From positions 32,324 to 48,185 of the forward strand of contig JAHCML010000005.1 of the NCBI GenBank assembly GCA_019192455.1: DNA of 15,862 nucleotides. The letters are read 5' to 3'. This DNA is from Alphaproteobacteria bacterium SS10 (GTDB lineage Bacteria > Pseudomonadota > Alphaproteobacteria > TMED2). The notes beneath the pieces are model-generated. The model did no database searches and was not told the DNA's origin. It saw only the letters and a program-made list of their open reading frames with translations. Shown here in pieces: positions 632 to 15,862 of this stretch. Numbering within the stretch: position 1 is the stretch's first letter; the number at the start of each line of letters is the position of its first letter. The position numbers and the translations under genes are program-made.

Positions 632-1717
632 ATGGGGGCATTTCAAGGCAAGCAATTCCGAGGTGGCATCCTGCGTCAGCTATCCATGACGCGGGGCATC
701 ATCGGTGTTCTGTCTGCGCCGCTGCCAGTTGCCGCCGCTGGTGCAACCCATGAAACCCCAGCCATCACTGATCCAGATGCTGGCGTCCGCCTGAACAGTG
801 CGTCGCTTGAGCGTTGGCGCGCGAAGAACCGCGATAACTGCCTGATGCCGGGTGAGGCACCAGACAGCAAGACTGAGCAGCTGTTGAACAGGTTCTATGG
901 CTATATCCGTCAGTCAGAGCTCGCGGATCGGCTGTACCAAGATTTGTCTGGTGGTACCGCCACCCTTTGCACCAATGCAGCAACGAAAATCCCGGCATCA
1001 GCGGCCGCCATCTACCTCATTGGTCAGGACGCGGCGATCATCAACGCGAATGGTGCCGGTGGCCGCGTGGTGTTGAGTGGCCTGCATGAGCTTCGCCATG
1101 GGTGGCAGGATCAAAACCGCCTGCTTGACCGGATGTTGGCAGAGACGAAGCAGAACCGGTTTGCGGCCCTCTATATGGTTGAGGCGGATGCCGCTGCCTT
1201 CGCGGTTGCTGGCGCCTACCAGTTAAAGCAGGCCGGTGCGACGGAGGCCTGGGAGGCCGCGCAGAAGAGCCCAACCTATAAGCCGCTGACCGAGGCGTTT
1301 GAGCGTGAGATTGGCACGATCCCCGATGGTGCCAAGCTTTCCGATGGCCAGATCCGGCGCGGCATGCAGGGCGCCTTTCACGCTTGGTTCGACAACTCTG
1401 GTTTGGACAAGGCCTATACCGACCGACACCTAGAGGGTTGGCGTTCGGTCGCTGATAGCGGCATAGGGCGTGCTGTGAACATCCGACAGCTTGCGATGGA
1501 GCTGGGCAAGCTGCCCGGCAGTGGTGGCCGGCCAAGCCCCAGTTACATGGGCATTCAAGAGATCAAGAAGGCCCAGAGCCGGGCACTCGAATTGGTTGAG
1601 CGTCAGCAAACCTCGCCACGCGACAACCCGGTGGGCAATCCTTTACTGACCTCTGATGGCAAACCCGAGGGGCCCAAACGTGTGCCCGTGCCTGGCTCGT
1701 CCAGCGGCGCAATCTAA
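632..1717 (+). CDS. Hypothetical secreted protein with an HExxH zinc-metallopeptidase-like motif.
   Basis: Long ORF with GC-rich codon usage. An ATG at 632 is preceded by GAGGTG at 614-619. There is a hydrophobic N-terminal segment (IIGVLSAPLPVAAAGA). A LHELRHGW (HExxH) motif sits mid-protein, with a downstream Glu-rich region. The start is uncertain: ATG 632 or ATG 686. Confidence 0.55.
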   Translation: MGAFQGKQFRGGILRQLSMTRGIIGVLSAPLPVAAAGATHETPAITDPDAGVRLNSASLERWRAKNRDNCLMPGEAPDSKTEQLLNRFYGYIRQSELADRLYQDLSGGTATLCTNAATKIPASAAAIYLIGQDAAIINANGAGGRVVLSGLHELRHGWQDQNRLLDRMLAETKQNRFAALYMVEADAAAFAVAGAYQLKQAGATEAWEAAQKSPTYKPLTEAFEREIGTIPDGAKLSDGQIRRGMQGAFHAWFDNSGLDKAYTDRHLEGWRSVADSGIGRAVNIRQLAMELGKLPGSGGRPSPSYMGIQEIKKAQSRALELVERQQTSPRDNPVGNPLLTSDGKPEGPKRVPVPGSSSGAI

Positions 1718-1850
1718 CCCCGGCCATTGGTAGTCGGTCATAAGCCCGTACCGGCTTTCAGCAGGCAGGCGTATTTGTAGTGGATACCCAATCGGCATAG
1801 CCGTGCAGGCCCACGGGTTTTAAACCGCCAGACCGGGGATTGGATCAGCC

Positions 1851-2819
1851 ATGAGTGATGAACCAGACCAAGGCCAAAAGCCTAGCAAGACAGGAACCGG
1901 GGTCGCCCTTCCTGCCCTGCTTTTTACCGGTGTTGTTGGCGGTGCGGGCGCGGCTATCGCGATCTTTGGCAGTGGTCCGCAGGCCGAGTTAACCCCAACC
2001 GATATCGCGGCACAGCCGGCGGCGGTCACCATTGTTGAGGGTGACCCCAGCGCGGTCGCAGATGGGGCACTCGTCTATGATTTGGGGGATACGGCATTCA
2101 ATGACTGGCGGGCTGGCGGTACCAACCGCATCGTCTTGCCTGGTTCGGATATCCTGCCAGAGCTTGAGATTGATGCCAGCAAGGTTCAGTCGGGCATTTA
2201 TGAGTTTGAGGGCGATCTGACCATTCGTGGTGATCTCACCATGCCCTATACCGAGTTCCGCGCGAATAGCATTACCGTCACCGGTTCCGTCCGCGCCGAT
2301 CACGTCACGCTGACCGGGATCGAAGGGGAGGGTGAGAATGGCTTCCCGCAGTTTCGGGATGAGCATAGCGAGCACTATTACATCTACCATTGGAACCGTG
2401 AGTTTGAGCGCGGCAATGTGAGTGTGGCCCAGGACGTGATGGGTTACGGCATTGCCATTACTGCCGGTGAGATAACAATTGGTGGCGAGGCCCAGGGCCA
2501 AATCACCCTCTCTGCCTCAGGTGGTGAGGTCGCGGGTGTTTACCTGCATGATGATCACTACGGTGCTTACAAGGATGTAACTGAGGTGCGCGAGGATCAG
2601 ATCCCCGCTGAACATTTCTACTTCGATGAACGTCGGCCGCTTCGAGACACTCGCAGAGTGATTAATATCGGTGGTGAGGTCGGGCCCGATGTGGTGCAGC
2701 AGAGCACTGTGGAATGGACGCGTCAGCGCAATATCGCTGCCGGTATCGAGTTGCCGAATAACCCCTTGCCACCGCATCTTCGCCGCTACGGTGAGCCCGT
2801 CATTACGATGCGACCCTAG
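1851..2819 (+). CDS. Membrane-anchored beta-solenoid-like (bactofilin-like?) repeat protein.
   Basis: 322-aa ORF. The N-terminus has one predicted TM helix (VALPALLFTGVVGGAGAAIAIFG). Repeats include GDLTIRGDLTM, ITVTGSVRADHVTLTG and IAITAGEITIGGEAQGQITLSASGGEVAG. The C-terminal half is paralogous to ORF 3-587. Confidence 0.6.
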   Translation: MSDEPDQGQKPSKTGTGVALPALLFTGVVGGAGAAIAIFGSGPQAELTPTDIAAQPAAVTIVEGDPSAVADGALVYDLGDTAFNDWRAGGTNRIVLPGSDILPELEIDASKVQSGIYEFEGDLTIRGDLTMPYTEFRANSITVTGSVRADHVTLTGIEGEGENGFPQFRDEHSEHYYIYHWNREFERGNVSVAQDVMGYGIAITAGEITIGGEAQGQITLSASGGEVAGVYLHDDHYGAYKDVTEVREDQIPAEHFYFDERRPLRDTRRVINIGGEVGPDVVQQSTVEWTRQRNIAAGIELPNNPLPPHLRRYGEPVITMRP

Positions 2820-2839
2820 GCCGGGCCCAAAACAGATAT

Positions 2840-2871
2840 GGGGCCGCCACCCAATCAAAGGCGACGGCCCC
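2840..2871. terminator. GC-rich hairpin between convergent genes; a possible bidirectional terminator.
   Basis: ggggccg(cc)...(g)cggcccc inverted repeat, about 7-9 bp, between the stops at 2819 (+) and 2891 (-). Confidence 0.4.
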
Positions 2872-2890
2872 ATGCCCGGGGATTTGGCGC

Positions 2891-4042
2891 TTAAGCCTCA
2901 TCCCGCAGCTTGACCAGATCGTTCAGCAGGCCGTCGGTACCGTTGGTTACGGTCAGCCGTTCGACCTTACCGGCAATCGTTTCAAGCGCTTCCAGCTCTT
3001 TCAGCCGCAGCATCACTGGGTTTTCAGCGATGACCTTGGCCGTGTTCAGCAGCGACCGGGTGGCGTTTGTTTCCTCCCGCCGCTTGATCACGCTGGCCTC
3101 GGCCTGTTTCTCGGCTGCGACCACGGTGTTCAGGATGTCCCGCATCTCACCCGGCAGGACGACGTCCTTTAGGGTGATATCCGAGACCTCGACACCGATC
3201 TTGGCGAGATCGGCCCGGATCTTGTCGAGCGCCAGAGCATCGACCGTCGCCTTGTTTTCAAGGATCTGGTCGAGGGTCTTGGCACCCAGCTCTTTCCGAA
3301 ACACGGTTTGTAGCGACCGGTACAGGACGTCTTGGAAGTCCTTAACGTCCGTAACGGCAGCCACCGGGTCCGTGACTTGGTAGGTGGCGGTGACATTGAT
3401 CCGGATGGTCACCCGGTCCTTGGTCAGGAGTTCCTGACCAGTGACGTCGAGTGCCTGCACCCGGCCATCAATGACTTTCACCTCCACCGACCGGCCAGCC
3501 CGCCAGAAGCCGTAGGCCCCAGGCTTGAGCACCCGATCCAGGACACCGTCGACGAACACCAGACCGGTTTCACCATCGGCGATGGTGGCCAGGGTAGCGA
3601 GACCGGTGAGGTTGGTTTTCGTCAGTCGCCGCAGCAGCGGGCCCTTGATCACCATATCCTCCACCGCATCGGTGACGGTTGCCGTCCATGGGCCAGCTTC
3701 GGTCCAGAGGACCAGCCGCTGATCCGGGCCCAGCACTTGGAAGACCCGGCCATCCTGCTCGATGACGGCCACCTCTTGCGGGCCGGTTGTCACCAGCGTC
3801 AGCTGCTCGGCCGCGATATCAGGGAGCCTATCGAACAGGGCGGTCTCGTAGCTGGAGACTAGGACAGCCTCGGTCAGCTCGGCCCATTCCAGATCAAGCC
3901 GATGCCCGCGTGAAGGCAGCCAGTATTCACCTGGCATCAGGATGTCCCTCAGCTGACCCTTGTCGAGCCAGATGGCCCGCTCGGTCTCGTTCACGATCAC
4001 CCGGGTTCTACCGGTGATCCATTCTTTCAGTTTGATCATCAT
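2891..4042 (-). CDS. SPFH (band-7, stomatin/prohibitin-like) domain protein with an N-terminal extension of about 170 aa.
   Basis: The C-terminal 200 aa show the typical SPFH pattern: RVTIRINVTATYQVTDPVAA, FRKELGAKTLDQILENK, IGVEVSDITLKDVVLPGEMRDIL and AEKQAEASVIKRREETNA. ATGATG start at 4042 with an AGGAG Shine-Dalgarno sequence about 9 nt upstream. No TM helix is evident. Confidence 0.85.
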   Translation of the reverse strand: MMIKLKEWITGRTRVIVNETERAIWLDKGQLRDILMPGEYWLPSRGHRLDLEWAELTEAVLVSSYETALFDRLPDIAAEQLTLVTTGPQEVAVIEQDGRVFQVLGPDQRLVLWTEAGPWTATVTDAVEDMVIKGPLLRRLTKTNLTGLATLATIADGETGLVFVDGVLDRVLKPGAYGFWRAGRSVEVKVIDGRVQALDVTGQELLTKDRVTIRINVTATYQVTDPVAAVTDVKDFQDVLYRSLQTVFRKELGAKTLDQILENKATVDALALDKIRADLAKIGVEVSDITLKDVVLPGEMRDILNTVVAAEKQAEASVIKRREETNATRSLLNTAKVIAENPVMLRLKELEALETIAGKVERLTVTNGTDGLLNDLVKLRDEA

Positions 4043-4247
4043 CGTTCTTACTCCTGTTTCATCGCTTCGCGGCTTTGCTAACGCACGGGCGATACTCCTT
4101 TGGTTGTTTATCGAGGGCTGGTTGATGGGCCCGGGCCGCCGCCCTCGAATGAAGACAGCCCGGGTGTTCCGATTACGTGTTCGAACCTTGTGTTCGGAAA
4201 TTCTGGGAGACGCTCAAAGGCGCCCGGATGGCCGGGGGCAACCCCTG

Positions 4248-4300
4248 GTCACGGGTCGATGGGCGCGAGATCCGCGGTCGATGCCCCAGCGCCCGTGACC
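4248..4300. promoter_or_regulatory. Structured inverted repeat in the SPFH upstream region.
   Basis: Perfect 9-bp inverted repeat ggtcacggg (4248-4256) / cccgtgacc (4292-4300) encloses 35 nt that contain a direct 8-mer repeat, ggtcgatg, twice. It lies about 210-250 bp upstream of the SPFH start. Confidence 0.25.
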
Positions 4301-4528
4301 GATCTGCCAGGGCGATGCCTGGTCAATCAGGTGTTGGGGGTTGGGGCACGGAACCGGCGGCTCGGGCCGCAAAGACCGGCAGCTGGGGGAGGGTTGTGTT
4401 GCCCTGCTCGCTAGACCCCGACGCTGTTCACCAATGGTAAATTCCCAAGGGCAATCAACGCCGGCGCGTTGCAGGGCGCGGCAACATCCCGTCCATCCGG
4501 GCTAGTTTTGGAGACCGTCACAGGGTCG

Positions 4529-4600
4529 TGCAAAGCGTGGGAATCGAACCCACAACAATCAGATCCTGAGTCTGATGCTCTACCGTTGAGCTAGCTTGCT
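4529..4600 (-). tRNA. tRNA-like element or tRNA pseudogene: class-I cloverleaf with anticodon CAG and a defective acceptor stem.
   Basis: The minus strand reads AGCAAGC-TA-GCTC-AACGGTA-GAGC-A-TCAGA-CTCAGGA-TCTGA-TTGTT-GTGGG-TTCGATT-CCCAC-GCTTTGC-A (72 nt). D-arm, anticodon arm, 5-nt variable loop and T-arm are canonical. The acceptor pairs only if one A is added to the 5' strand (GCAAGC against GCTTTGC). CAG would decode Leu, but Leu tRNAs are class II with a long variable arm. Confidence 0.45.
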
Positions 4601-4975
4601 GGGACGATTGGATATCGTCGGCAAATCGACCAGACCGATGGCGCATCCAAACATGGGCCGTGGCAGTGCCAAGCCATGTGGGCGAGTAAATTTTGAAACT
4701 CTGACCATGTGTCACCTCCGGGTTATTCCGGTCGAGGGTCGCGGTGGATACGCGAAACACGAATCACTGGCAACAAGAAATTTTCGGGCCCTAGCTGTCT
4801 TGTTCTGGGTGTTGGGTCGGATTTGGCAATAAAACATCACCAGACATCGCATGTTCAGAATGAATATTTCGATCTATAAGTAATCATCGTATCATTCATT
4901 GCGTTTTTTGAATGCGTTGCAAAAAGCTATTGGCGGAAAGTGCCGGTGCTGGCAGCCTAATAGAACAGATCGCCG

Positions 4976-5003
4976 ATGGGCGGCGATCTTTGTTCAACTC
5001 GAA
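4976..5003 (+). terminator. Orphan intrinsic-terminator-like hairpin.
   Basis: agatcgccg-atggg-cggcgatct (9-bp perfect stem, 5-nt loop) followed by tttgtt. There is no upstream plus-strand CDS. Confidence 0.35.
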
Positions 5004-5564
5004 CGCAACCGATTGTTAGAACCACTAGGGAGAGCTCGATGCATAGTTATGTATCCATTCACATGTGCTCCACCGGCTTTGGTTCTGAGCTTGTCTTAAC
5101 CGACCGTCCGAATAAGGGACGCCTCCGTTAACACCCGCTCGGTCCAACCGGAAACGCTTACCAACCTTCCGGGTTTGGACGATTAAACGACGATTGGTTT
5201 GCCCCAGTTACACTTGCTGGGACCCAATTCCGCAAAATTGATCAGGATGTCTGGCTTAGGTCGTATTGCGACCTTGCTTTGCTACCCCTCACGCTACCGG
5301 TGTCTCGATATGCCGGTTACGGGACGCATAACCGCCATCAATCCATCCAATCCCGGCCATGGGTGCGCCGATCTTTAGTGATCTACAGCGCACATGGAAT
5401 GGGCCGAGCGTTTGTTAGAGCACGCGATCCACCACCAATGCGTCTGAGCGTCGGCGGTGATGATCGCCATCCATCAAGGGTATTGATTATTTGAAGAAGG
5501 GAGTACGGCCAGCTACGGACCCCACTAAGCAAAGGCTTAGATACAAGGTTTAGGGGTCGGCCGT

Positions 5565-7520
5565 ATGAAGATGATGGCTGAAGATTTTGATGATGATTTA
5601 GATGACCAGGGCGACCATGACCGTACCGGTCGTATGAGAAGCCGCAGTGAATCCGCGGCCCTCTACGCCAAGACATGGGCGTTCTCTTGGAACTACTGGC
5701 GCCAGCACCCCAAGCTGTTTTGGGGCGTGTTTGCCATGACCTGCCTCATGATTGCGGCGGATGTGGTGTCACCTTGGCTGGCCGGCTCGATCGTTGATGC
5801 GATCGTGGTTGATGCCAGTGCCAGCACTGCCCTCTGGGCGGTGGCCGGTTATGTGGGGATCATGGCGCTTTTCCATGGTTCCAAGCACATCACCGAGCAG
5901 CTTTGGATCCGGCTGGCGCCGATGTGTATGGAGCAAATCGTCAATGATGCGTTCCAACGCGTGCAGCGCTTCTCCTCGGACTGGCATGCGAACAGCTTTG
6001 CCGGTGCCGTGGTCCGCAAGATTACCCGCGGTAAGTGGGGCTTCGACCTTTATGGCGATACCCTGCTTTGGGGAGTGTTTCCCGCTGCGGTGATCTTGAT
6101 CGGCTGTACCCTCGCCCTTGCCATCCAGTGGTGGCAGGTGGGCCTCTTCGTTGGGGTGACCGGGGCGATCTATGTGGTGGTCAGCGTGATGATGGCCGTC
6201 CATTGGATCGGACCGGCAAACCAGCAGCAGGTGGCCCAGGACAGCAAGATCTCGGGCCTGTTGGCTGACGCCCTCGGCTGTAATGCCGTGGTGAAGGCCT
6301 TCGGTTCTGAGGCGCGGGAGGATCGCCGCATCGCTAAGGCGGCGCGCCTCTGGCACTTGCGGGCCCGGCGTAGCTTGGGTCGGGCCGTTGGCTCAGGCGG
6401 GTTCCAGTCCATCATGGTGACCATCATGATGGCGGGCGCGTTGAGCCTGGCAATCTGGCTCTGGCATGTGGGCCAGGCGACCAGCGGCGATATCGTCGTG
6501 ATCATGTCGACCATCCATGTGGTCAACGCCTATCTGCGGTTTGTTGGGCAGCATGCCGAGCATCTGCAGAAGTCGGTGAACGAGATGGAAGATGTGATCC
6601 GCTTCATGGACCAAGAGATCGCGGTCCGTGATGTGCCCGGGGCCCCACCTTTCCAGGCGGCTGTTAATGACAGTCAAGAGGGCGGTGGTGCTAAGGGCGG
6701 TGAGATCCGCTTTGAGGGTGTGACCTTCCGCTATGGCGGGCAGGTGGACCCGCTCTACCGTGATTTCGATCTGGCGATTAAGCCGGGCGAGCGGGTGGGG
6801 CTGGTTGGGCCTTCGGGCTCAGGTAAGTCGACCTTCGTGAAGCTGTTGCAGCGGCTTTACGATTTGAATGATGGGCGGATCGTGATCGACGGTCAGGATA
6901 TCGCACTCGTTCAACAGTCGAGCTTGCGCCGTGCGCTTGCCATGGTCCCGCAGGAGCCGGTGCTGTTCCACCGTTCGCTCGCCGAGAACATCGCCTATGG
7001 ACGGCCAGGTGCCGGCCGGGCGGCGATCGAGGCAGCGGCGCGGGAGGCCCTCGCCCATGACTTCATCATGCGCCTACCCCAGGGTTACGACACCCTGGTC
7101 GGTGAGCGCGGCGTGAAGCTCTCGGGTGGTGAGCGACAACGGGTGGCAATTGCCCGCGCGTTGTTGGCCGATGCACCGGTCCTGATCTTGGATGAGGCCA
7201 CGGCGGCGCTGGACAGCATCGCCGAGGCGGAAATCCAGCGGGCCCTGGGTCGCTTGATGGCCGGTCGGACCACGCTCGTCGTGGCCCACCGTCTGGCAAC
7301 GGTTCAGGGGATGGACCGGATCCTGGTGTTCAACCAGGGCCGGATCGTCGAGGAGGGCAGCCATGCGGCCCTGCTGCAAAGAGAGGGTGGCCACTACCGC
7401 GCCCTGTTTGAGGAGCAGGCCCTGGGCCTAATGGATGGCCTAGACGCCAGCCAGAAGGCAGCCCTACTAGCCGGCCAAGCGCCAGCCATTGAGGCACATC
7501 TAAAAAACGGCGCTGCGTAA
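5565..7520 (+). CDS. ABC transporter, fused permease/ATP-binding protein (type I exporter, MsbA-like).
   Basis: 651 aa. The N-terminal half has multiple hydrophobic TM segments. The nucleotide-binding domain has Walker A GPSGSGKST, ABC signature LSGGERQRVAIARAL, Walker B ILDEAT and H-loop VVAHRL. There is an acidic N-terminal extension (DFDDDLDDQGDHD). Confidence 0.9.
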   Translation: MKMMAEDFDDDLDDQGDHDRTGRMRSRSESAALYAKTWAFSWNYWRQHPKLFWGVFAMTCLMIAADVVSPWLAGSIVDAIVVDASASTALWAVAGYVGIMALFHGSKHITEQLWIRLAPMCMEQIVNDAFQRVQRFSSDWHANSFAGAVVRKITRGKWGFDLYGDTLLWGVFPAAVILIGCTLALAIQWWQVGLFVGVTGAIYVVVSVMMAVHWIGPANQQQVAQDSKISGLLADALGCNAVVKAFGSEAREDRRIAKAARLWHLRARRSLGRAVGSGGFQSIMVTIMMAGALSLAIWLWHVGQATSGDIVVIMSTIHVVNAYLRFVGQHAEHLQKSVNEMEDVIRFMDQEIAVRDVPGAPPFQAAVNDSQEGGGAKGGEIRFEGVTFRYGGQVDPLYRDFDLAIKPGERVGLVGPSGSGKSTFVKLLQRLYDLNDGRIVIDGQDIALVQQSSLRRALAMVPQEPVLFHRSLAENIAYGRPGAGRAAIEAAAREALAHDFIMRLPQGYDTLVGERGVKLSGGERQRVAIARALLADAPVLILDEATAALDSIAEAEIQRALGRLMAGRTTLVVAHRLATVQGMDRILVFNQGRIVEEGSHAALLQREGGHYRALFEEQALGLMDGLDASQKAALLAGQAPAIEAHLKNGAA

Positions 7521-7533
7521 TAGCGGTGTTAGG

Positions 7534-7565
7534 AAGCCCGGGGGTCAATGCTCCCGGGCTTTTCC
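7534..7565 (+). terminator. Rho-independent terminator of the ABC transporter gene.
   Basis: aagcccggg-ggtcaatgct-cccgggctt followed by tttcc, 14 nt after the stop codon. Confidence 0.65.
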
Positions 7566-7602
7566 TGCTTCACATCAGAATAAAGTATACGATAAGTATT
7601 TT

Positions 7603-7693
7603 TGGTGGGTCGCCAAGGAATCGAACCTCTCGCTGTAACCACCCCAAGATTTTACAGCACAGCGTTTACAGCGCCGCATGGGGAAAGCGACCC
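7603..7693 (-). tRNA. tRNA-derived element (91 nt, CCA encoded): Tyr-like anticodon stem-loop, no foldable D-arm, oversized variable hairpin. Probably a pseudo-tRNA or remnant.
   Basis: The minus strand reads GGGTCGC...GCGACCC-A-CCA, a perfect 7-bp acceptor, with T-arm AGAGG-TTCGATT-CCTTG. The internal hairpin CGGCG-CTGTAAA-CGCTG gives anticodon GTA. Only 7 nt separate acceptor and anticodon arm, so there is no D-arm. The motif GCTGTAAA is duplicated and forms a 7-bp variable hairpin. Confidence 0.45.
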
Positions 7694-7843
7694 AAGAGTA
7701 ACTAATTTTGATGTGTGAATTTGGCACGCAGTCTCACCGCAGCGGGATTTTCCCGCTGCGCTAAAAATTAACTGCAATAATAATATATAAGAGCGTGCAT
7801 AGCCCGATAAATGACCGTTTTTTAATCGTAAGTCAAATTTAAA

Positions 7844-7861
7844 TTCGATGTATTTACATCG
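7844..7861 (-). terminator. Putative terminator hairpin of the AT-rich orphan gene.
   Basis: tcgatgt-attt-acatcga (7-bp stem) lies 30 nt downstream of the stop at 7892 on the minus strand and is followed by an A/T-rich tract (auuuaaauuu). Confidence 0.35.
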
Positions 7862-7891
7862 AGCGGCCCTAGCGTCGGTTGGCCAATGGCT

Positions 7892-8708
7892 TTATCGTTG
7901 CCGCATAAGCCAGTTCCTAACTTCCCGCATAGACTCGTTGAACTCGCGAGGGTGCCAAGGAAGCTCTAGAGATTCTTCAATTGGTCGTGCACACTCAAGC
8001 ATTCTGATGCCATCCCATCTTTTGAGCACGTAGATAGCCAGATCCTCGCTGCTCATTTTGCCGATACTACTCTTTAGATGAGAGAGCATTTCGCTCGGCA
8101 TTGATTTGACGATTTTTTTGGCAAATTTGCTTATTTCTTTTTGGGTTTTATTTTCTATATTTTCTATTTCTTGTCTTTTCCATAATGAATTTATGAACAT
8201 ATAGGCTGATATTTTGTTTTTACATTTGTACATGTCCCCTTTTTTATGTACAAAATCATTTATTTTGAATGATTCCATCAATTTTCGATATAAATTATTA
8301 TTGGGTGTAAAGTATTCTATGCTGCTACTCACCCAGCCAAATTGGTAGGAATTTTCCAGTATTATATTAATAGACCTATCAATATCTTGTTCTGATAAAT
8401 TTGGCATTGAAATTATCAGCTCATGTATAAGATCTGATTCAATGATTTGTTCGGATATTCCTTTTTCAAAATCACTTTCTATTATGTTGTATTCTACTAG
8501 AAGGTAATATGCGCGTTCGCCGCTCGACACATATCCCGTTTCAATTTGGTATGCTTTGCGATTGTCGCACCACCATCTTGGAAGGCTGTCGGCTAAGAAA
8601 CCCAGTATTGTGCTTAGGAGTAAGATCTGATCATCAGTTGCTTTCTCTGAAATCATCGACGAATCCTCAATCACGTAGTTGTTCTCAGTGAGGTTTTCGG
8701 TGGCCATT
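7892..8708 (-). CDS. Orphan hypothetical protein encoded in an AT-rich (foreign) islet.
   Basis: About 272-aa ORF at roughly 30% GC, against about 60% in the flanks. The likely start is ATG at 8708 (MATENLTENNYVIEDSS), with GGGAGGGAG about 15 nt upstream. The ORF track's 359-aa version extends the frame into unrelated GC-rich DNA. The protein is I/N/K/E/S-rich with no recognisable motif. Confidence 0.6.
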
Positions 8709-8765
8709 GATCCCGCGCCTATCTCCCTCCCATGAGAGAGAGTACGGTAAAAAGCCGCCATCGAC

Positions 8766-8860
8766 CGACCAATAAATGCAGGTCTATTACGATGGGTCTT
8801 GTCCCTTACGTCGTAAGGAGTTCGCCTGGTATGGGCGCCGGGAGATTGAGGCGCCAATCT
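8766..8860 (+). pseudogene. Duplicated 5' fragment of the DUF393/DCC thiol-disulfide oxidoreductase gene.
   Basis: About 90% nucleotide identity over about 85-95 bp with 9654-9740. It encodes MQVYYDGSCPLRRKEFAWYGRREIEA, against MQVYYDGSCPLCRKEIAWYERRGIEA in the intact gene. The second Cys of CxxC is lost and similarity ends after about 28 codons. Confidence 0.6.
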
Positions 8861-8947
8861 GCCCGGTCCTAATTGTTTTCCCGCTTTCACTGGTTGAGCG
8901 TAAACGCGACGGATACCCGAAACACTATGGTTACAAGGATCAGCGCC

Positions 8948-9574
8948 ATGGCCACCGGATATCCCTTGCAAGATGATGAGCTAACCCAGGCTGACTTCGC
9001 CATCGCCTTGAGTGCGATGCCGACCCATAAGAGCCATTGGAGTGCGACGGATGAACGGCGGGCGCTGTATCTCGATCTGGCTCGAATGTCCGAGGGGCTG
9101 ACCTTCATCGATGAGGCGCGTGGTTTTCGCTTCCCCTGCGTCCGGGCCAGCTTCGGATATCTTGAAGACATCATGGCCGCGATCCCGCAGGCCGCCGTTC
9201 AGGCCGGTGCCATCTCCAATGAGATGGGCATATTTCAGGGTCGTCATGATTCAATCGTCGAAGATCAGAAGGGTGGCTATGCCGCTGGCGCTCAAGCGCC
9301 CTCCATCCGCGCTGCCCTGCTCTATGACGTGAAGAAGGATGAGGTGGTTGGCCTATCCGGTGCCGGTCGGGTTGCGCTGGCGATGCTAGACGCGGAATTC
9401 TCCGGACAGTTCTCCCCGCAGAATTTGCGCGAGCGAGGCCTCGACTATTTCAATAAGCAGTTGGAGGCAGCCGGGTTCGACCCCATGACCATGCCAGCGC
9501 CCAAGGCTGACCGGCAGGGGGCGGCACCCAAGCCAGATGCACCCGACGGCACCGGTCGGCCCATGCGGCCCTAG
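8948..9574 (+). CDS. Hypothetical protein.
   Basis: GC-rich ORF. ATG at 8948 with AAGGAT 8 nt upstream. Alternative starts at 8927 or TTG 8873. No recognisable motif; the C-terminus is Pro/Ala-rich. Confidence 0.5.
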   Translation: MATGYPLQDDELTQADFAIALSAMPTHKSHWSATDERRALYLDLARMSEGLTFIDEARGFRFPCVRASFGYLEDIMAAIPQAAVQAGAISNEMGIFQGRHDSIVEDQKGGYAAGAQAPSIRAALLYDVKKDEVVGLSGAGRVALAMLDAEFSGQFSPQNLRERGLDYFNKQLEAAGFDPMTMPAPKADRQGAAPKPDAPDGTGRPMRP

Positions 9575-9623
9575 GTCAACGCGACCCCCTCGTCTTCGGC
9601 TTATTCGCCCCTATCTTGGTGGC

Positions 9624-9998
9624 ATGAGCAAACCAGCCGACCAACAGCAACAAATGCAGGTCTATTACGACGGGTCTTGCCCCCTATGTCGTAAGGAGAT
9701 CGCCTGGTATGAGCGCCGGGGGATTGAGGCCGCCATGTGTGATGTGAGTGAGGCTGCTAATGTACCCGGCGATCTGACGCCCGAGGCCGCCATGGCGCGG
9801 TTTCATGTGCGCGATACCGATGGTCGGCTGCTCTCCGGCGCTGAGGCGTTTGTCGCCACCTGGCGGGTAACGCCGGGGCTGAAATGGCTGGCCGTCCTGT
9901 GCCGGCCTAGGCCGGTTATCTGGGTACTGGAGCGGCTGTATCGCCTCTTCCTCCATATCCGCCCGCAGATCCAAAAATTTGCACGATCCCTAACCTGA
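9624..9998 (+). CDS. DUF393 / DCC-family thiol-disulfide oxidoreductase (YuxK-like).
   Basis: N-terminal MQVYYDGSCPLCRKEIAWYERRG with a CxxC motif, diagnostic of the family. About 124 aa from ATG 9624, which is the family size. The ORF-track start at 9537 is probably too far upstream. Confidence 0.75.
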   Translation: MSKPADQQQQMQVYYDGSCPLCRKEIAWYERRGIEAAMCDVSEAANVPGDLTPEAAMARFHVRDTDGRLLSGAEAFVATWRVTPGLKWLAVLCRPRPVIWVLERLYRLFLHIRPQIQKFARSLT

Positions 9999-10145
9999 TC
10001 CACCAATCTGTTTCCACCCGGCCCCATGGGCACCGCATTCACAATGCTGCTACAGCGTTGGTTCCCAACGCGAACGCGCTAGCACCCGGTCAGTCTCGGG
10101 ATTAGGGTGGTGGCAATCTGTTCTCGCAAAAATGAAGACACTGCC

Positions 10146-10841
10146 ATGACCATCAAACTCTACGACCTGGCCGGTGAAGATTTGGAGATGCGGTTTAGCC
10201 CTTTTTGTTGGCGGACCAAGCTGGCGCTCGCCCATAAGGGGCTGGCATTCGAGACCATCCCCTGGCGCTTCCATGAAAAGGAGGCGATTGCCGAGAGTGG
10301 CCAGCCCAAGGTTCCGGTGATCGTTGATGGCGATAAGTGGATCCATGATAGCTGGGCCATCGCTGAGTATCTGGATGAGGCGTATCCAGATTGCCCGATG
10401 CTGTTCGCGGGCCCAGAGACGAAGGCCCATATCCGTTTTCTCGATGCCTGGATTGGCAAGGTGCTGTTCCCGGCGATTGCCAAGTCGGTGATGGTGCCGC
10501 TGCAGGATGTGATTGCTGAGGAGAACCGCGCCTATTTCCGGGAAACCCGGGAGAAGGTGTTCGGCATGACCTTGGAGCAGCTAGGTGAATTGGCGCCATC
10601 GGCGGAGGAGTTCTACGCCATGCTCTCACCGCTCCGCTCGGTCCTTGCCAAGCAACCGTTTCTGGCCGGTGATGCGCCAGATTATGGGGACTACCTGCTG
10701 TTCGGCCCGTTCCAATGGGCGCGCTGTTCCTCACCAGATGAGCTGCTGGCCGCCGATGATCCGGTTGCCCAATGGCGTGGTCGTGTTCTGGACCTCTATG
10801 ACGGTTTAGGCCGCAACGCCCCCGCCCGTTGTGCCGCTTGA
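10146..10841 (+). CDS. Glutathione S-transferase family protein.
   Basis: Thioredoxin-like N-terminal domain (TIKLYDLAG..SPFCWRTKLALAHKGLAFE..VPVIVDG) plus a helical C-terminal domain. 231 aa from ATG 10146. Confidence 0.75.
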   Translation: MTIKLYDLAGEDLEMRFSPFCWRTKLALAHKGLAFETIPWRFHEKEAIAESGQPKVPVIVDGDKWIHDSWAIAEYLDEAYPDCPMLFAGPETKAHIRFLDAWIGKVLFPAIAKSVMVPLQDVIAEENRAYFRETREKVFGMTLEQLGELAPSAEEFYAMLSPLRSVLAKQPFLAGDAPDYGDYLLFGPFQWARCSSPDELLAADDPVAQWRGRVLDLYDGLGRNAPARCAA

Positions 10842-10853
10842 TCGGGTTTGGCC

Positions 10854-11981
10854 ATGAGTGACGAAACCAAGGCTGGTTCTGCTAAAGGTGATGTTGCGGC
10901 AATAATCCGCGCGGCGTTCCGCGAGGGTTGGATGGCCCGGCATCAGCTTCGCGAGCCGGATGAGAACGATGTGGAGAATGACTGGATCATCTCTGAGGCG
11001 CGCAAGGCGGGAACCAGTGAATTCAAGGCGGTGACGCCAGAGTTAGTCCGCGACTGCTACCGCGCCCTGCTAAAGCGTGAGCCAGAGAACGATGATGTCG
11101 TTGCGGCCAGGGTTGCGGGGACGTCGAGCGTCTCTGATTTGCTCGAATCCTTCCGTCGATCACCAGAGCTGCTGCACCGGGCCTATATTGAGTATCTGCG
11201 GCGGCACAGCCCAGCGCTCAAGCCAAAGCCCCGGTTCGATCTCGATATAGCGCCGGACCAATTCAACCGATTGTTTGAAAGAGTAGTCACCCAATGGAGT
11301 GACCTTGGTCAGGCCGAGCCCTATTGGTCCGTGCTGACAGATGAGAAGTACAAAAGCGATGCGATTGATGAGGAGGTGCGGCAACGCTTCTACGACACTG
11401 GGAAGGATCTAGAACGGGAATTGAGACAGCTCCACGCCCGCAATGACGTGGCTTTTCAGGGTGGTGTCTGCTTGGAGCTCGGCGCGGGTGTCGGACGGTT
11501 AACCACCACATTGGCAAAGATGTTTGATCGGGTTATTGCGGTCGACATCTCACCGGGGAACCTAGAGATATGCAGAAAACATCTAGAGAAAAATAATATA
11601 GATAATGTCGATTTCAAAATTATATCCAACCCAGAACAGATTGGTGAATTAGAAAATTTTGATTATTTTTATTCGTTAATGGTGCTGCAGCATAATCCGC
11701 CGCCAATTCAAGAGTATATACTGGATATAATATTTAGAAATCTGAATGAAGGTGGGTTTGTTAATTTTCAACTGCCAACCAGTACGCCAGAATACCAGTT
11801 TGATATTGAGGCTTATTTGAGCTCATCACGCCAGGTTATGGATATGCATGATTTACCCATGAGTCGCGTATTCAGGCTTTTCCAGCGTCATGAAATCTTA
11901 CCGATAGATGTGATTATGGATAGCCACACGGGCACGTTTGGATCTCATAGCTTCTTCGGCCAAAAGCGGTCGGGGTCTTGA
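10854..11981 (+). CDS. Class I SAM-dependent methyltransferase with an N-terminal domain of about 200 aa. Compositional mosaic.
   Basis: Motif I LELGAGVGRLT, post-I acidic VIAVDIS, DYFYSLMVLQH and LNEGGFVNFQLP. It starts 13 nt after the GST stop. GC drops from about 60% to about 35% at about 11560 and recovers at about 11920, all within one intact frame. Confidence 0.75.
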   Translation: MSDETKAGSAKGDVAAIIRAAFREGWMARHQLREPDENDVENDWIISEARKAGTSEFKAVTPELVRDCYRALLKREPENDDVVAARVAGTSSVSDLLESFRRSPELLHRAYIEYLRRHSPALKPKPRFDLDIAPDQFNRLFERVVTQWSDLGQAEPYWSVLTDEKYKSDAIDEEVRQRFYDTGKDLERELRQLHARNDVAFQGGVCLELGAGVGRLTTTLAKMFDRVIAVDISPGNLEICRKHLEKNNIDNVDFKIISNPEQIGELENFDYFYSLMVLQHNPPPIQEYILDIIFRNLNEGGFVNFQLPTSTPEYQFDIEAYLSSSRQVMDMHDLPMSRVFRLFQRHEILPIDVIMDSHTGTFGSHSFFGQKRSGS

Positions 11982-11997
11982 GGCGCGGCGTTCGAAT

Positions 11998-12303
11998 ATG
12001 AGCCCTGATGAATTGGCGGCGGGCCGCGTCTACCTTACCGGCCATATCGATGTGCCGGCGGATCGCCTGACAGCGGTTCGCGATGCGCTGGATGAGCACA
12101 TCGCCCTGACCCGGGCAGAGCCGGGCTGTCTGTCATTTGACGTGGTGGAGCAGGATGACCCGCCAGGTCGGTTCTCGGTGGCTGAAGTCTTTGAGAACCA
12201 GCAAGCCTTCGATGCCCATCAGGAACGGACCAAACAGTCAGCTTGGTTCCAGGTAACCGAGCGGATTCCCCGGCATTACACAATCACGACCAAGGCGGAT
12301 TAG
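11998..12303 (+). CDS. Antibiotic-biosynthesis-monooxygenase (ABM/Dabb) domain protein.
   Basis: About 101 aa from ATG 11998. FENQQAFDAHQERTKQSAWFQ is typical of ABM-fold proteins. Confidence 0.6.
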   Translation: MSPDELAAGRVYLTGHIDVPADRLTAVRDALDEHIALTRAEPGCLSFDVVEQDDPPGRFSVAEVFENQQAFDAHQERTKQSAWFQVTERIPRHYTITTKAD

Positions 12304-12914
12304 TCGTCCAGGGCGGCTAGATCGCCATCCCCATACTGTACATAACCGTCAGGACCAGTTGGCCGAAGCTTCTTAGCCTTCCAGCATCGCTTACCATCAT
12401 CCTGGGTCAGTTCAGGATTGGCCGCTTTGAATGCACGTAGGTAGCGTAGGTAGTTGTTGTGCTTGGCGATCGGCTTCTGGTCAGGGGCGGCACGGTTCCG
12501 CGCTTCAATCTCGTACCAGGCTGCAATCGCGTCATTCAGGCTATACCCCGGATGCGCCCTGACCCAGGCCATGAACTCACCCGAGCAGGTAAAGCCTTTG
12601 CCAATCTCCGCCTTGAAGAACCCGCGGACATTCGGGCCAAAGCTAATCTGGTCATCAATGATCTCACCTCCGGTGAGCGCTGCCTTGGACCAATTGATGC
12701 GGTTGGTCTGTTGGGTTGGCTTGGTGGTGGGTCGTTCCTCACTCTGACCATCCAACCGGGCCGCTATCCGATGACGAAGCTCAGCCTTACTGCCAGCCCT
12801 GGATAGCTGGAGGGTTTCGCAGATGGTCTCCAGCATCTCCTTCTCCCAATACCAGCCGAGAAACTGATCGCCGGTCATACCGGGATTGAAGGCCGGGCGG
12901 GTGCCATCGCTCAT
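12300..12914 (-). CDS. SAP-domain-containing hypothetical protein.
   Basis: The N-terminal stretch MLETICETLQLSRAGSKAELRHRIAARLDG matches the SAP motif. ATG at 12914 forms an ATGA overlap with the stop of the upstream hydrolase gene. Confidence 0.65.
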   Translation of the reverse strand: MSDGTRPAFNPGMTGDQFLGWYWEKEMLETICETLQLSRAGSKAELRHRIAARLDGQSEERPTTKPTQQTNRINWSKAALTGGEIIDDQISFGPNVRGFFKAEIGKGFTCSGEFMAWVRAHPGYSLNDAIAAWYEIEARNRAAPDQKPIAKHNNYLRYLRAFKAANPELTQDDGKRCWKAKKLRPTGPDGYVQYGDGDLAALDD

Positions 12915-13768
12915 TGGTACGGGCAACCATCTCTGAGGAAGGCGACCGTTTCATCCCGCACCGGGCGGTGGTCACGGTAGATCCAGCTGAACGCGCTGAT
13001 TAGGTCGATATGGCCTAACCCCTCATAGGTTTTGACCTGATAGCAGACATTGTTTTTAGCCAGGGCAGCGGCCAGGCGTTCATGGTTCTGCGGCCCGACC
13101 AGATCATCCGCCTCACCCCATTGCAGCAGCATGGGCGGGACATCCCGTGTCACCTGCCCCGCCAGGTGGGTGGCGCTAGTGGGAGCGCCAACAAAGACGG
13201 CAACGATATCATCATCACGCGGGGTGAAATCATAGGGACCGGCGAGGCCAATAACCCCGGCCAGTTGTTTGGGTGCCAGATCATGGGCGGCCAGAAATTC
13301 CGGGTTCACGGCCAGGGTGGCGGCGATATGGGCGCCCGCCGAATGCCCCATCAGATAGACATCGCCGCCGCCTAGGGCATCCAGATTATCCATCACCCAG
13401 GCAACGGCCTTGGCGCCATCCTCGGCAAAGGCTGGGAAACGATGGGCCGGTGATTTTCGGTAATCGGGAATAACGGTGATGAAGCCCTTAGCGGCCATCT
13501 CGCTGCCAACAAACCGGTACTCCGCCCGCGCTCCGGTCTGCCAGGACCCGCCATAGAAGAAGATGATCACCGGCAGCTTGCCCGCTGGGTCCCCACTTGG
13601 CCGGTAGATGTCCAGGGCCAGCTTCTCCACGGGGTCGAAGGTCGTGTTGAAGGTCTCCTCAACCTCCGCCAGTCGTGTCGGGATGTTGACGGCTGCAAGG
13701 CCGGCATCTTCACAAGCGGTCATCAGCAAAAGCAGCCCGGCAAGGGCGGAACGGAGAAGCATGGGCAT
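12911..13768 (-). CDS. Alpha/beta-hydrolase (esterase/lipase family) lipoprotein.
   Basis: Signal peptide with a lipobox-like LLMTAC. Oxyanion-hole region IIFFYGGSW, nucleophile elbow GHSAGA, and a downstream Asp and His (GLGHID). Confidence 0.85.
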   Translation of the reverse strand: MPMLLRSALAGLLLLMTACEDAGLAAVNIPTRLAEVEETFNTTFDPVEKLALDIYRPSGDPAGKLPVIIFFYGGSWQTGARAEYRFVGSEMAAKGFITVIPDYRKSPAHRFPAFAEDGAKAVAWVMDNLDALGGGDVYLMGHSAGAHIAATLAVNPEFLAAHDLAPKQLAGVIGLAGPYDFTPRDDDIVAVFVGAPTSATHLAGQVTRDVPPMLLQWGEADDLVGPQNHERLAAALAKNNVCYQVKTYEGLGHIDLISAFSWIYRDHRPVRDETVAFLRDGCPYQ

Positions 13769-13777
13769 AGAACTAGA

Positions 13778-14563
13778 TCATCCACGCTTCCTGATCAGGG
13801 TCTGCTTGGCAATGATGCCCGCCATAACGGCCACCCGCTCGGCATTGTCCTTTGCCTCGCTGTCATCGGCATGGGTAAGCGAGTTCTCAAAGCCTACCCG
13901 GCATTTGCCGCCTGCTTTGATCGCCGCCTCTAGGCAATCGGTCTCGCCCTGCCCGAAGGCACAGACCGCCCAATCGGGCGCATGCCCCAAAGCACGTTGC
14001 CGGTCGAGGAAGGGGGTTAGCATCTCGGGGTTACTCTGCTGCCCTTCCGTGTATCGGCCGAGGACATAGATCAGCTGCAACGCCGGATCGGTCAGCCGCT
14101 CCTTAGGCAGGGTGTTGGCCAGCAGATCGTAATCATCCAGATCATAGAGAATGTGCTGAACCCCGATGCCCCGCTCATGACAGGCAGCATAGAAGCCGGG
14201 GGCTTCATCCGGCTCACGCATCATTTCCCGGATTGAGACGGAGACAAGCTCGGCACCACTCTCAAGTGCTACCGCGCGCTGGGCTGGTGGGTCATAGATA
14301 CCAACCGCTTCGGTCGTAATCTGAACCGTCATGCGCGGCACCTTTTCCGCCAGCAGCTTTAAGATCGCGCTGTACTGTTCGACATCGAGCAGGTGCTTGC
14401 CTTCAGCATCCCGGATATGGAGGTGCAGGCCATCGGCGCCGGCGGCAAAGCAGTTCTTCGCCGCGATAATGATCTCGTCAGTGGTGATGGGCAGGGCCGG
14501 GTGGTCCGCCTTGGTGCGCCGGGCACCGTTGGGGGCCACCATCAGGCTTGGCAGTGGGGTCAT
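13778..14563 (-). CDS. BKACE / DUF849 family beta-keto-acid cleavage enzyme (3-keto-5-aminohexanoate cleavage enzyme-like).
   Basis: N-terminal LMVAPNGARRTKADHPALPITTDEII matches the BKACE signature. TIM-barrel-like length of 261 aa. The ATG at 14563 overlaps the aminotransferase stop (ATGA). Confidence 0.8.
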   Translation of the reverse strand: MTPLPSLMVAPNGARRTKADHPALPITTDEIIIAAKNCFAAGADGLHLHIRDAEGKHLLDVEQYSAILKLLAEKVPRMTVQITTEAVGIYDPPAQRAVALESGAELVSVSIREMMREPDEAPGFYAACHERGIGVQHILYDLDDYDLLANTLPKERLTDPALQLIYVLGRYTEGQQSNPEMLTPFLDRQRALGHAPDWAVCAFGQGETDCLEAAIKAGGKCRVGFENSLTHADDSEAKDNAERVAVMAGIIAKQTLIRKRG

Positions 14564-15862
14564 GGAAGGGATTTATCAATCGCTGTGGCGAGCTTGGTCA
14601 CCAGCTCATCAACATGGTTGTCTTCAAAGATAAAGGGCGGGGCGAGCAGGACGTGGTCGCCATGCTTGCCGTCGATAGTGCCCCCGGCGGGATAGCACAT
14701 AAGGCCACCCTCAAACGCGTTTCGCTTAACCGCCTTATTGATGCCGAGGCTGGGGTCGAAGGCGGCTTTGGTTTCTCGGTCCGCCACCAGTTCCAGACCG
14801 ATAAACATGCCGCGCCCACGGATATCGCCGATATGCGGATGCTGGCCAAAGGCCTGGTCTAGGCCAGCGCGCAGTTTCGCCCCCATTGTGGCCGCCCGCT
14901 TGGTGAGGCCGCCATCAGTTAGCTTGGCCATCACGGCGAGGCCAGCGGCACAGGCGGTGGGGTGACCGATATAGGTATGGCCATGTTGGAACAGGCCGCT
15001 GCCGTCCTCAATCGTGCGGTAAATCTCACCCGTACAAAGTGCGGCGCCAATCGGTTGGTATCCGGCGCCAAGCCCCTTGGCGATGGCGATCATATCCGGG
15101 GCCACGCCATCCTGCTCACAGGCGAACAGGCTGCCGGTTCGGCCCATGCCGCACATCACCTCATCCAGGATCATTAGGATGCCGTGGCGATCACAGATCT
15201 CGCGGATGCGTTTGAAGTAGCCAGGCACGGCTGGCACTGCGCCCAAGGTCGCACCGACCACTGGCTCGGCGATAAAGCCGATGACCGTTTCGGGCCCCAG
15301 CTCTTGCAGCTTGGTCTCCAGCTCATCCGCGACGCGGTGACCATACTCGGCCTCACTCTCCTCTGGCTGCTGGTCGCGATAGGCGTAGCAGGAGGCGATG
15401 TGATGCGCCTCAATCAGCAATGGCTCAAACGGGTCCCTACGCCATTGATTGCCGCCGACAGCCAGCGCGCCAAGCGTATTGCCGTGATAGCTTTGCCGCC
15501 GTGCAATGAAGTGGCGGCGCCCCGGCTCCCCACGTTCCAGATGATATTGCCGGGCAAGCTTCAACGCGGCCTCCATCGCCTCCGACCCGCCAGAGGTGAA
15601 GTAGACCCGCTCAATCCCCGTCGGGGCATGGTCGATCAGTTTATCCGCCAGCTGTTCGGCCGGTTCGCTGGTGAAGTAGCTGGTATGGGCATAGGCAACC
15701 TGCCCGACCTGTGCCTGGATCGCGGCAATCACCTCGGCATCGCTATGGCCAAGGCAGGACACCGCCGCCCCACCGGACCCATCCAGATATTGATTCCCCT
15801 CAGCATCATAGAGATAGACCCCATCGCCGCGCATGGCGGTGGGCAGCTTCGCTTTGGTATGG
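14560..15862 (-). CDS. Class III pyridoxal-phosphate-dependent aminotransferase (omega-amino acid/beta-alanine-pyruvate type). The 5' end lies outside the window.
   Basis: LPTAMRGDGVYLYDAEGNQYLDGSGGAAVSCLGH and ILMILDEVMCGMGRTG, with a Lys in the AIAKGLGAGYQPIGA region. The frame stays open to the window edge (TKAKLPTA upstream of the listed Met). Confidence 0.9.
   Translation of the reverse strand, partial: HTKAKLPTAMRGDGVYLYDAEGNQYLDGSGGAAVSCLGHSDAEVIAAIQAQVGQVAYAHTSYFTSEPAEQLADKLIDHAPTGIERVYFTSGGSEAMEAALKLARQYHLERGEPGRRHFIARRQSYHGNTLGALAVGGNQWRRDPFEPLLIEAHHIASCYAYRDQQPEESEAEYGHRVADELETKLQELGPETVIGFIAEPVVGATLGAVPAVPGYFKRIREICDRHGILMILDEVMCGMGRTGSLFACEQDGVAPDMIAIAKGLGAGYQPIGAALCTGEIYRTIEDGSGLFQHGHTYIGHPTACAAGLAVMAKLTDGGLTKRAATMGAKLRAGLDQAFGQHPHIGDIRGRGMFIGLELVADRETKAAFDPSLGINKAVKRNAFEGGLMCYPAGGTIDGKHGDHVLLAPPFIFEDNHVDELVTKLATAIDKSLP

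Follow-up and report, generated by a model that had tools for sequence, protein, structure and literature searches.

How does a tract of about 35% GC come to lie inside an otherwise GC-rich gene while the reading frame runs through it undisturbed? This question is raised by a stretch of 15,862 nucleotides from Alphaproteobacteria bacterium SS10 (contig JAHCML010000005.1; this whole stretch is referred to as the window, and its overall GC is 0.577), which carries a gene for a predicted class I S-adenosylmethionine (SAM)-dependent methyltransferase. The original prediction, made from the letters alone, had described positions 11560-11920 of this gene as an in-frame mosaic segment that seemed to have replaced the resident sequence and to come from a low-GC donor. 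We consider it probable that the gene is indeed a mosaic, in which about 360 bp were replaced by the homologous segment of another, AT-rich member of its family. The parts of the gene to which the argument refers are the following.

10854 to 11981, plus strand: complete gene of the predicted methyltransferase (start codon ATG, 375 amino acids), recognized from its open reading frame (ORF) and translation

10854 to 11562, plus strand: 5' part of native-like composition (GC 0.57), encoding the N-terminal extension, the helical region, motif I and post-I (VIAVDISPGNL)

11463 to 11570, plus strand: conserved motif I/post-I block with the invariant or near-invariant residues of G204-L237, abutting the 5' junction

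11563 to 11922, plus strand: AT-rich in-frame tract (the mosaic patch), the maximum-likelihood segment of 360 nt, with GC 0.353 versus 0.582 outside (log-likelihood ratio, LLR, 33.3)

11574 to 11816, plus strand: core of the tract (amino acids 241-321) with the strongest AT bias at third codon positions, where GC (GC3) is 0.28 versus 0.62 outside

11680 to 11705, plus strand: GC-rich micro-island within the tract, sequence gtgctgcagcataatccgccgcca, whose codons specify the invariant VLQHNPPP loop that follows beta4

11923 to 11981, plus strand: 3' tail of native composition, the last 19 codons and the stop, with GC of 0.53 and 0.70 in 30-nt windows

A compositional break within an intact gene

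The search for the maximum-likelihood low-GC segment spanned 10101-12900 and recovered the predicted tract almost to the nucleotide. In a sliding profile, GC falls from 0.55-0.60 to 0.34-0.39 across approximately 11500-11900, and the support intervals of two log-likelihood units place the 5' end, which is sharp, at 11498-11578 and the 3' end at 11855-11956. GC3 depends on amino-acid content, and its expectation was therefore derived by applying the codon usage of 12 neighbouring genes to the encoded residues. In neighbouring genes, as in the N-terminal part, GC3 lies within 0.62-0.77. For 11562-11921 the observed GC3 is 0.350 and the expected value 0.672 (z -7.9), and the core deviates from native codon usage with a z of -7.5; its third-position LLR of 14.9 lies above all of 300 shuffles (95th percentile 7.4, maximum 10.1). 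The 5' part shows a GC3 of 0.64 versus 0.69 expected. For the last 19 codons (11922-11978) the values are 0.68 and 0.66 (z +0.2), and native composition is thus regained before the stop, as had been predicted.

Both codon choice and amino-acid content set the patch apart. Isoleucine is encoded in the core by five ATA, four ATT and no ATC codons, versus 3, 27 and 87, respectively, in native genes, and codons that are rare in the host prevail in the patch (ATA for five of nine Ile, AGA for both Arg, AAA for all three Lys). The residues F, Y, M, I, N and K (FYMINK) make up 0.42 of the core, versus a family mean of 0.283 (standard deviation, sd, 0.05) in the same alignment columns, the highest of 84 values (z +2.75); conversely, the share of G, A, R and P (GARP) in the patch is 0.148 versus 0.254 in the family at the same columns (z -2.0). 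Neither fraction departs from the family norm in the N-terminal part. The biases in codons and in amino acids together point to a long residence of the patch in an AT-rich genome. A shift in amino acids, which involves first and second codon positions, is the product of long-term AT-biased mutation pressure, and this argues against a recent change in situ as well as against purely synonymous selection.

Clustered G:C to A:T mutations that arose in situ, e.g. by a deaminase, would likewise leave a strongly A/T-biased change limited to one stretch. However, the AT skew within the tract stays close to zero (0.10 to -0.05), many patch codons such as ATA and AGA require transversions from the native preferred codons, all invariant residues survive, and the replacements look filtered by selection. 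Local hypermutation is thus an extremely improbable source of the tract.

The predicted preservation of frame and fold is borne out by the encoded protein. The tract encodes the second half of alphaB, beta3, beta4, the HNPPP loop, alphaD (amino acids 283-295) and beta5, followed by a loop and a helix, and the peptides singled out in the original prediction (NVDFKII, DYFYSLMVLQH and LNEGGFVNFQLP) lie inside it and correspond to the predicted beta3, beta4 and beta5. Alignments with 19 and with 66 family members are collinear and show no indels at the junctions, and the family-invariant residues of the tract are all present (D270, Q279, H280, N281, P283, P284, Q306, Y314, H332, P335, D356). In the AlphaFold2 model the predicted local distance difference test score (pLDDT) is 96-98 nearly throughout the tract and 90 in one block of 10 residues near the 3' shoulder.

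Structural constraint and same-position patches in the family

The original prediction had named a structural constraint, recognizable by the same local AT-richness in orthologs, as the explanation that would compete with transfer. We compared 83 homologs (80 loci from genomes and three from metagenomes) in a codon-indexed alignment. The GC3 difference between patch and N-terminal part averages -0.003 in these homologs (sd 0.075) versus -0.34 in the query, which is the most extreme sequence (z -4.5). A family-wide dip of -0.14 to -0.17 does occur at second codon positions of amino acids 260-289 (the FDFFYS..LQHN block), and values over the glycine-rich motif I are raised by +0.18; these second-position effects account for roughly 0.05-0.07 of total GC. 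At third positions, no family-wide dip was detected at any point in the 83 homologs, the mean deviation being approximately zero per 20-codon window. The dip of the family is therefore confined to second codon positions while GC3 is flat, and structural constraint fails to explain the patch.

Most of the family lacks such a patch, but some members carry one at the same position. In change-point scans of all homologs, four out of five significant low-GC3 segments fell into the patch region (L055, amino acids 242-314; L085, 227-322; L052, 235-270; L026, 250-299), and the segment of a further homolog, L068, was slightly under the significance threshold. With the codon usage of each locus's own flanks as a control, the patch of L052 was lost, and three homologs from unrelated bacteria passed:

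L055, on a 472-kb contig: patch at about 3527-3800; z of -8.3 for the patch, -2.8 for the N-terminal part and -1.5 for the tail

L026, in the isolate genome of Roseomonas sp. AR75: patch at about 3527-3750; z of -6.7 for the patch, -3.4 for the N-terminal part and -3.2 for the tail

L068, in a Burkholderiales metagenome-assembled genome (MAG): patch at about 2291-2500; z of -5.2 for the patch, -3.2 for the N-terminal part and -0.5 for the tail

As L026 stems from an isolate, a patch at this position is no artefact of metagenome assembly. A shared AT-rich cassette circulating among these homologs was considered and rejected; the patches are no more alike than the N-terminal parts, which indicates either that they arose separately or that a positional effect, itself unexplained, is involved. 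That three other members bear a foreign patch in the same structural segment is the only one of our observations that goes beyond the ordinary.

These observations bear on the possibility of an assembly chimera, in which reads from the ortholog of an AT-rich organism would have been joined at shared k-mers. The sequence comes from a MAG, and its support is at the level of assemblies: a Logan contig (SRR14140256, 37.8 kb) is 100% identical to positions 854-14980 of the window (14,127 bp) including both junctions, a comparison of contigs in which the Logan assembly may represent the same run. Exact look-ups of the ABM and GST proteins encoded next to the methyltransferase returned the same Logan contig only and no second sample covering the methyltransferase gene. 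Against a chimera stand the complete identity of two different assemblies over 14 kb and the absence of repeats at the junctions. A search of the window for mobile-element signatures turned up neither repeats on the flanks of the patch nor a second copy of it, be it paralogous or silent. In addition, two in-frame, position-exact joins between 35% and 58% GC would be needed within one gene, the product is a collinear and confidently folded family member, and the same pattern is seen in the isolate L026 and on the 472-kb contig of L055. We therefore regard a chimeric assembly as very improbable.

The recurrence at the same position might also be taken to suggest that an AT-rich stretch of rare codons is kept by selection acting on the DNA or RNA itself, because it slows translation while the Rossmann domain folds, serves as a silencer site for nucleoid-associated proteins, or forms an RNA element for the downstream gene. 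In favour of such selection, a perfect inverted repeat of 14 nt connects the patch (11697-11710, the NPPPIQ codons at the 3' end of the micro-island) with codons 4-9 of the ABM gene (12009-12022); such a repeat occurred in 5 of 1000 block shuffles, and when 11680-12040 is folded as RNA (z -2.1), the minimum free energy structure and the centroid both contain the helix. On the other hand, about 79 of the 83 homologs show no dip, with the flat third-position profile described above, and selection on codons would leave the amino-acid composition short of the family extreme. Known rare-codon clusters are far shorter than 120 codons, which we also count against this explanation. Promoter-like sites number two versus 1.5 in shuffles, and neither internal promoters nor terminators exceed the shuffle level. 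Selection of this kind thus seems quite improbable as the cause of the tract.

The methyltransferase family as a whole appears to move horizontally often. Nine out of 69 homolog genes are AT-shifted over their entire length compared to their flanks (z < -3; L041, L084, L068, L043, L020, L044, L080, L079, L006). In L041 the gene has a GC of 0.33 and the flanks 0.50, and in L084 (protein P0015) a DDE transposase adjoins the homolog. Homologs such as these demonstrate that AT-rich alleles exist within GC-rich Proteobacteria. Polysaccharide loci, marked by GT4 glycosyltransferases, Wzm/Wzt-type ABC transporters, Poly_export proteins and epimerases, make up about half of the homolog contexts that were inspected; the query and L055 are situated among unrelated metabolic genes.

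Origin of the AT-rich tract

By the replacement that we favour, a resident methyltransferase gene of native composition would have exchanged positions 11563-11922 for a segment of another family member, through a double crossover or a conversion tract. The donor segment would have evolved for long in an AT-rich genome, or in the AT-rich islands in which the family often travels. The ends of the tract would have been set beside conserved blocks, i.e. motif I/post-I on the 5' side and MHxLP...D..GS on the 3' side; such blocks may be among the few sites that offer both sufficient identity between diverged alleles and a junction that spares the Rossmann fold. The event would be recent, the patch having yet to drift to the base composition of the host.

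The distribution of sequence identity in the family is consistent with these end points. Runs of at least 14 identical nucleotides between diverged family members form five peaks, at PYWSV, motif I (11466-11510), LQHNPPP (11676-11705), FQxPT (11766-11780) and MHxLP (11841-11855). The 5' support interval starts at motif I/post-I, and the 3' interval starts just past MHxLP. Judged from these sequence comparisons, the arrangement fits an exchange whose ends may have been set by short shared sequence and by the need for an intact fold. The break, its size and significance, the preserved frame and fold, its absence from most of the family and its reproduction in a second assembly are observed; this mechanism, the recombination itself and the import of the patch rather than of its flanks are what we infer from them.

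Several observations weigh against a replacement. The foreign codon and amino-acid bias agrees with the low-GC donor of the original prediction, but a donor itself was not found: an exhaustive HMMER search with the patch alone against 1.84 billion representatives gave at best 48% identity, a full-length search returned nothing over 44%, and a blastn search with the patch gave zero matches in plasmid and phage DNA. The N-terminal part is as isolated as the patch (42-44% versus 45-48% identity to overlapping homologs), with identities to this set of homologs ranging over 36-48% for both parts, and identity to homologs is uncorrelated with their GC. No phylogenetic incongruence is detectable between N-terminal part and patch, their nearest neighbours being largely common. 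The rank correlation between segments is -0.03 for the query and 0.21 on average for the family (sd 0.17), and a control comparing two parts of the N-terminal region (N1 versus N2) is equally low; since the family is star-like, this test of segment affinity is powerless and incongruence would be undetectable. The 3' boundary is gradual, with a shoulder of GC 0.40-0.47 over 11750-11930, and the micro-island interrupts the patch near its middle (GC 0.43 in its 30-nt window versus 0.23-0.30 in the adjoining ones), at the site of the strongest nucleotide conservation in the family (521 of 3477 pairs). Moreover, recombination between alleles of 35% and 58% GC at about 45% protein identity is mechanistically hard, as only short microhomologies are available, and the Logan assembly may share reads with the MAG.

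A real mosaic might also have had another history, having been built in another genome and then acquired as a whole, or having arrived as an AT-rich gene, with a GC-rich allele later written over its 5' part and its extreme 3' end. The N-terminal part is indeed slightly under native expectation in GC3 (0.637 versus 0.693, z -2.0), the whole gene is without a relative above 44%, and it stands alone between two unrelated genes, from which it is separated by spacers of 13-16 nt:

10107 to 10841, plus strand: GST gene, upstream neighbour of the methyltransferase gene

11998 to 12303, plus strand: ABM monooxygenase gene, downstream neighbour of the methyltransferase gene

In addition, the family is patchily distributed and often compositionally foreign, and some members are found on plasmids or beside transposases. 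The nearest relatives of the GST protein are only 55% identical, and in a synteny search none of them was found with the neighbouring genes. However, N-terminal part and tail fit the local codon usage closely, which calls either for a source of similar GC or for a long residence, and the latter clashes with a patch that is still undrifted. Although the present data do not discriminate such histories from the replacement of a resident segment, we consider them rather unlikely.

The original prediction had further suggested that the tract and an AT-rich islet about 3 kb away may derive from one donor event, a suggestion for which we find no support. The islet (approximately 7700-8700) contains a single ORF of 271 amino acids (7892-8707, minus strand; GC 0.38, core 0.23-0.31) without any match in Pfam, PHROGs or NCBIfam. 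Islet and tract share no sequence, the core of the islet is the more AT-rich of the two, three genes of native composition intervene, and the common preference for ATA, AGA and AAA is generic to AT-rich DNA. The islet also has scars of its own. On one side, at 7608-7692 of the minus strand, lies a degenerate tRNA-like element that retains an intact T-arm as well as the acceptor 3' end and CCA; the tRNA-Sec model scores it at 21.6 bits (E 0.074, below threshold), and ARAGORN makes no call. Such a remnant directly beside an orphan gene would be expected if an island had once inserted at a tRNA gene and decay had followed. On the other side, a direct repeat of 92 nt (8770-8861 and 9648-9739, 87% identity, spacing 878 nt) copies the 5' end of a DCC1-like gene (MQVYYDGSCPL...) and brackets an ORF of 208 amino acids (8948-9574) without any family match; the repeat has the look of a scar left by recombination or insertion next to the islet. 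The sole relative of the islet ORF among 5.8 billion proteins is encoded by the same DNA in another assembly (L096, positions 1-1166, ENA assembly ERZ23488063, sample SAMN09765694), which is 99.6% identical to the islet over 1167 bp with two gaps. This near-identity indicates that the same population is present in a second sample. Elsewhere in the window, a tRNA-Leu(CAG) gene (4528-4599, minus strand) is followed by an intergenic stretch of approximately 400 nt with lower GC (4700-5100, 0.44-0.49), upstream of an ABC exporter gene (5565-7520).

The enzyme and the meaning of the mosaic

The 375-residue protein is predicted, from its sequence and its modelled structure, to bind SAM and to transfer methyl groups. 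It is identical to an entry named 'MAG: methyltransferase domain-containing protein [Alphaproteobacteria bacterium]' (P0001, on a 238-kb contig) and matches Pfam Methyltransf_25 over amino acids 207-301 with 51.1 bits (cut-off 27). The features of class I enzymes are present, i.e. a glycine-rich motif I after beta1 (ELGAGVGR, amino acids 208-215, with E208, G210, G212 and G214 invariant across 67 sequences), a post-I acidic residue (D231, near-invariant in the family alignment) and a seven-stranded sheet in the strand order usual for the fold. The AlphaFold2 model (mean pLDDT 88.9) places the strands of this Rossmann-type sheet at 205-209, 226-231, 252-256, 269-274, 297-308, 348-355 and 364-371. 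NCBIfam, PHROGs, a PDB sequence search and Foldseek assigned the protein to no specific functional family and recovered only the generic class I fold: out of 29 NCBIfam matches, the 25 that were listed all fall far short of their cut-offs, the best PDB sequence match (E 3.9e-11) covers the core domain only, and Foldseek pairs the model at a probability of 1.00 with many class I methyltransferases (such as UbiG, TehB and NTMT1), the identities being 12-17% throughout. The UbiG name carried by many homologs finds no support (TIGR01983, 32.6 bits versus a cut-off of 102.95). The surroundings (GST, ABM monooxygenase, a DCC1-like protein) include no glycan cluster. The invariant HNPPP loop after beta4 (amino acids 279-284, nucleotides 11688-11705) occupies what we take to be the site of motif IV of amino-methyltransferases, (D/N)PP(Y/F), and this position would presumably hint at N-methylation chemistry for the family.

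The N-terminal extension (amino acids 1-59, nucleotides 10854-11030) is modelled with low pLDDT and is missing from most family members. It holds a degenerate second copy of the family motif 'YRxLLGREPExDxV' (IIRAAFRE...LREPDENDVE), and a similar extra copy is found in the homologs P0015 and P0028.

In-frame mosaics are known from other systems. The penicillin-binding-protein genes of Neisseria and Streptococcus contain homologous blocks from other species that give rise to functional chimeric enzymes; their donors have been identified, with a DNA divergence of 15-25%, and both natural transformation as the uptake route and a selected phenotype are known. The methyltransferase gene would share with them the in-frame replacement of a block, but the implied divergence is far larger here (about 45% protein identity to any known relative). 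Intragenic mosaics also occur in low-GC polysaccharide gene clusters for O-antigen or capsule; about half of the homolog contexts are loci with polysaccharide genes, and several homologs are AT-shifted against their flanks, whereas the query gene lies outside any glycan cluster. Transfer within genes is common among prokaryotes: out of 1,462 ortholog sets, 19.6% were reported to contain breakpoints inside ORFs (Chan, Beiko, Darling & Ragan 2009, PMC2817436). Our case resembles these gene-fragment transfers in that a segment with its own history lies in an intact ORF, with frame and functional residues kept; in contrast, their breakpoints were identified by phylogenetic incongruence, and the evidence here is compositional (codon and amino-acid bias). 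As gene-fragment transfer is well documented, the mosaic is of a familiar kind and represents a new example. A further likeness exists to segmentally variable genes, methyltransferases included, in which conserved blocks flank lineage-variable segments (Zheng, Roberts & Kasif 2004, PMC387263), as conserved motif blocks bracket the exchanged segment here; such genes are reportedly defined by their sequence variability, and neither a compositional break nor a foreign origin is required.

One conceivable reading of the recurrent patches is that the segment from alphaB to beta5, including the HNPPP loop, is an exchangeable module, and that the family diversifies by repeated swaps on the acceptor side with breakpoints at the conserved motif blocks. 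We think this doubtful at present; it draws on four unrelated members with a foreign segment (the query, L055, L026 and L068). As a test of composition sees only swaps from AT-rich donors, the true frequency of swaps would be higher if the segment were such a module.

Apart from its origin, the tract illustrates that codon-position profiles across homologs can separate an intragenic compositional break from structural constraint, with the GC3 expected from the amino acids under native codon usage as a second test. For an uncultured alphaproteobacterium, the gene offers a clean case of probable gene-fragment transfer that a second assembly reproduces. Should the recurrence hold with more genomes, it would represent a natural case of module swapping inside a single enzyme domain, and such swapping, if true, would bear on how methyltransferases diversify in specificity and on the choice of crossover points for chimeric enzymes.

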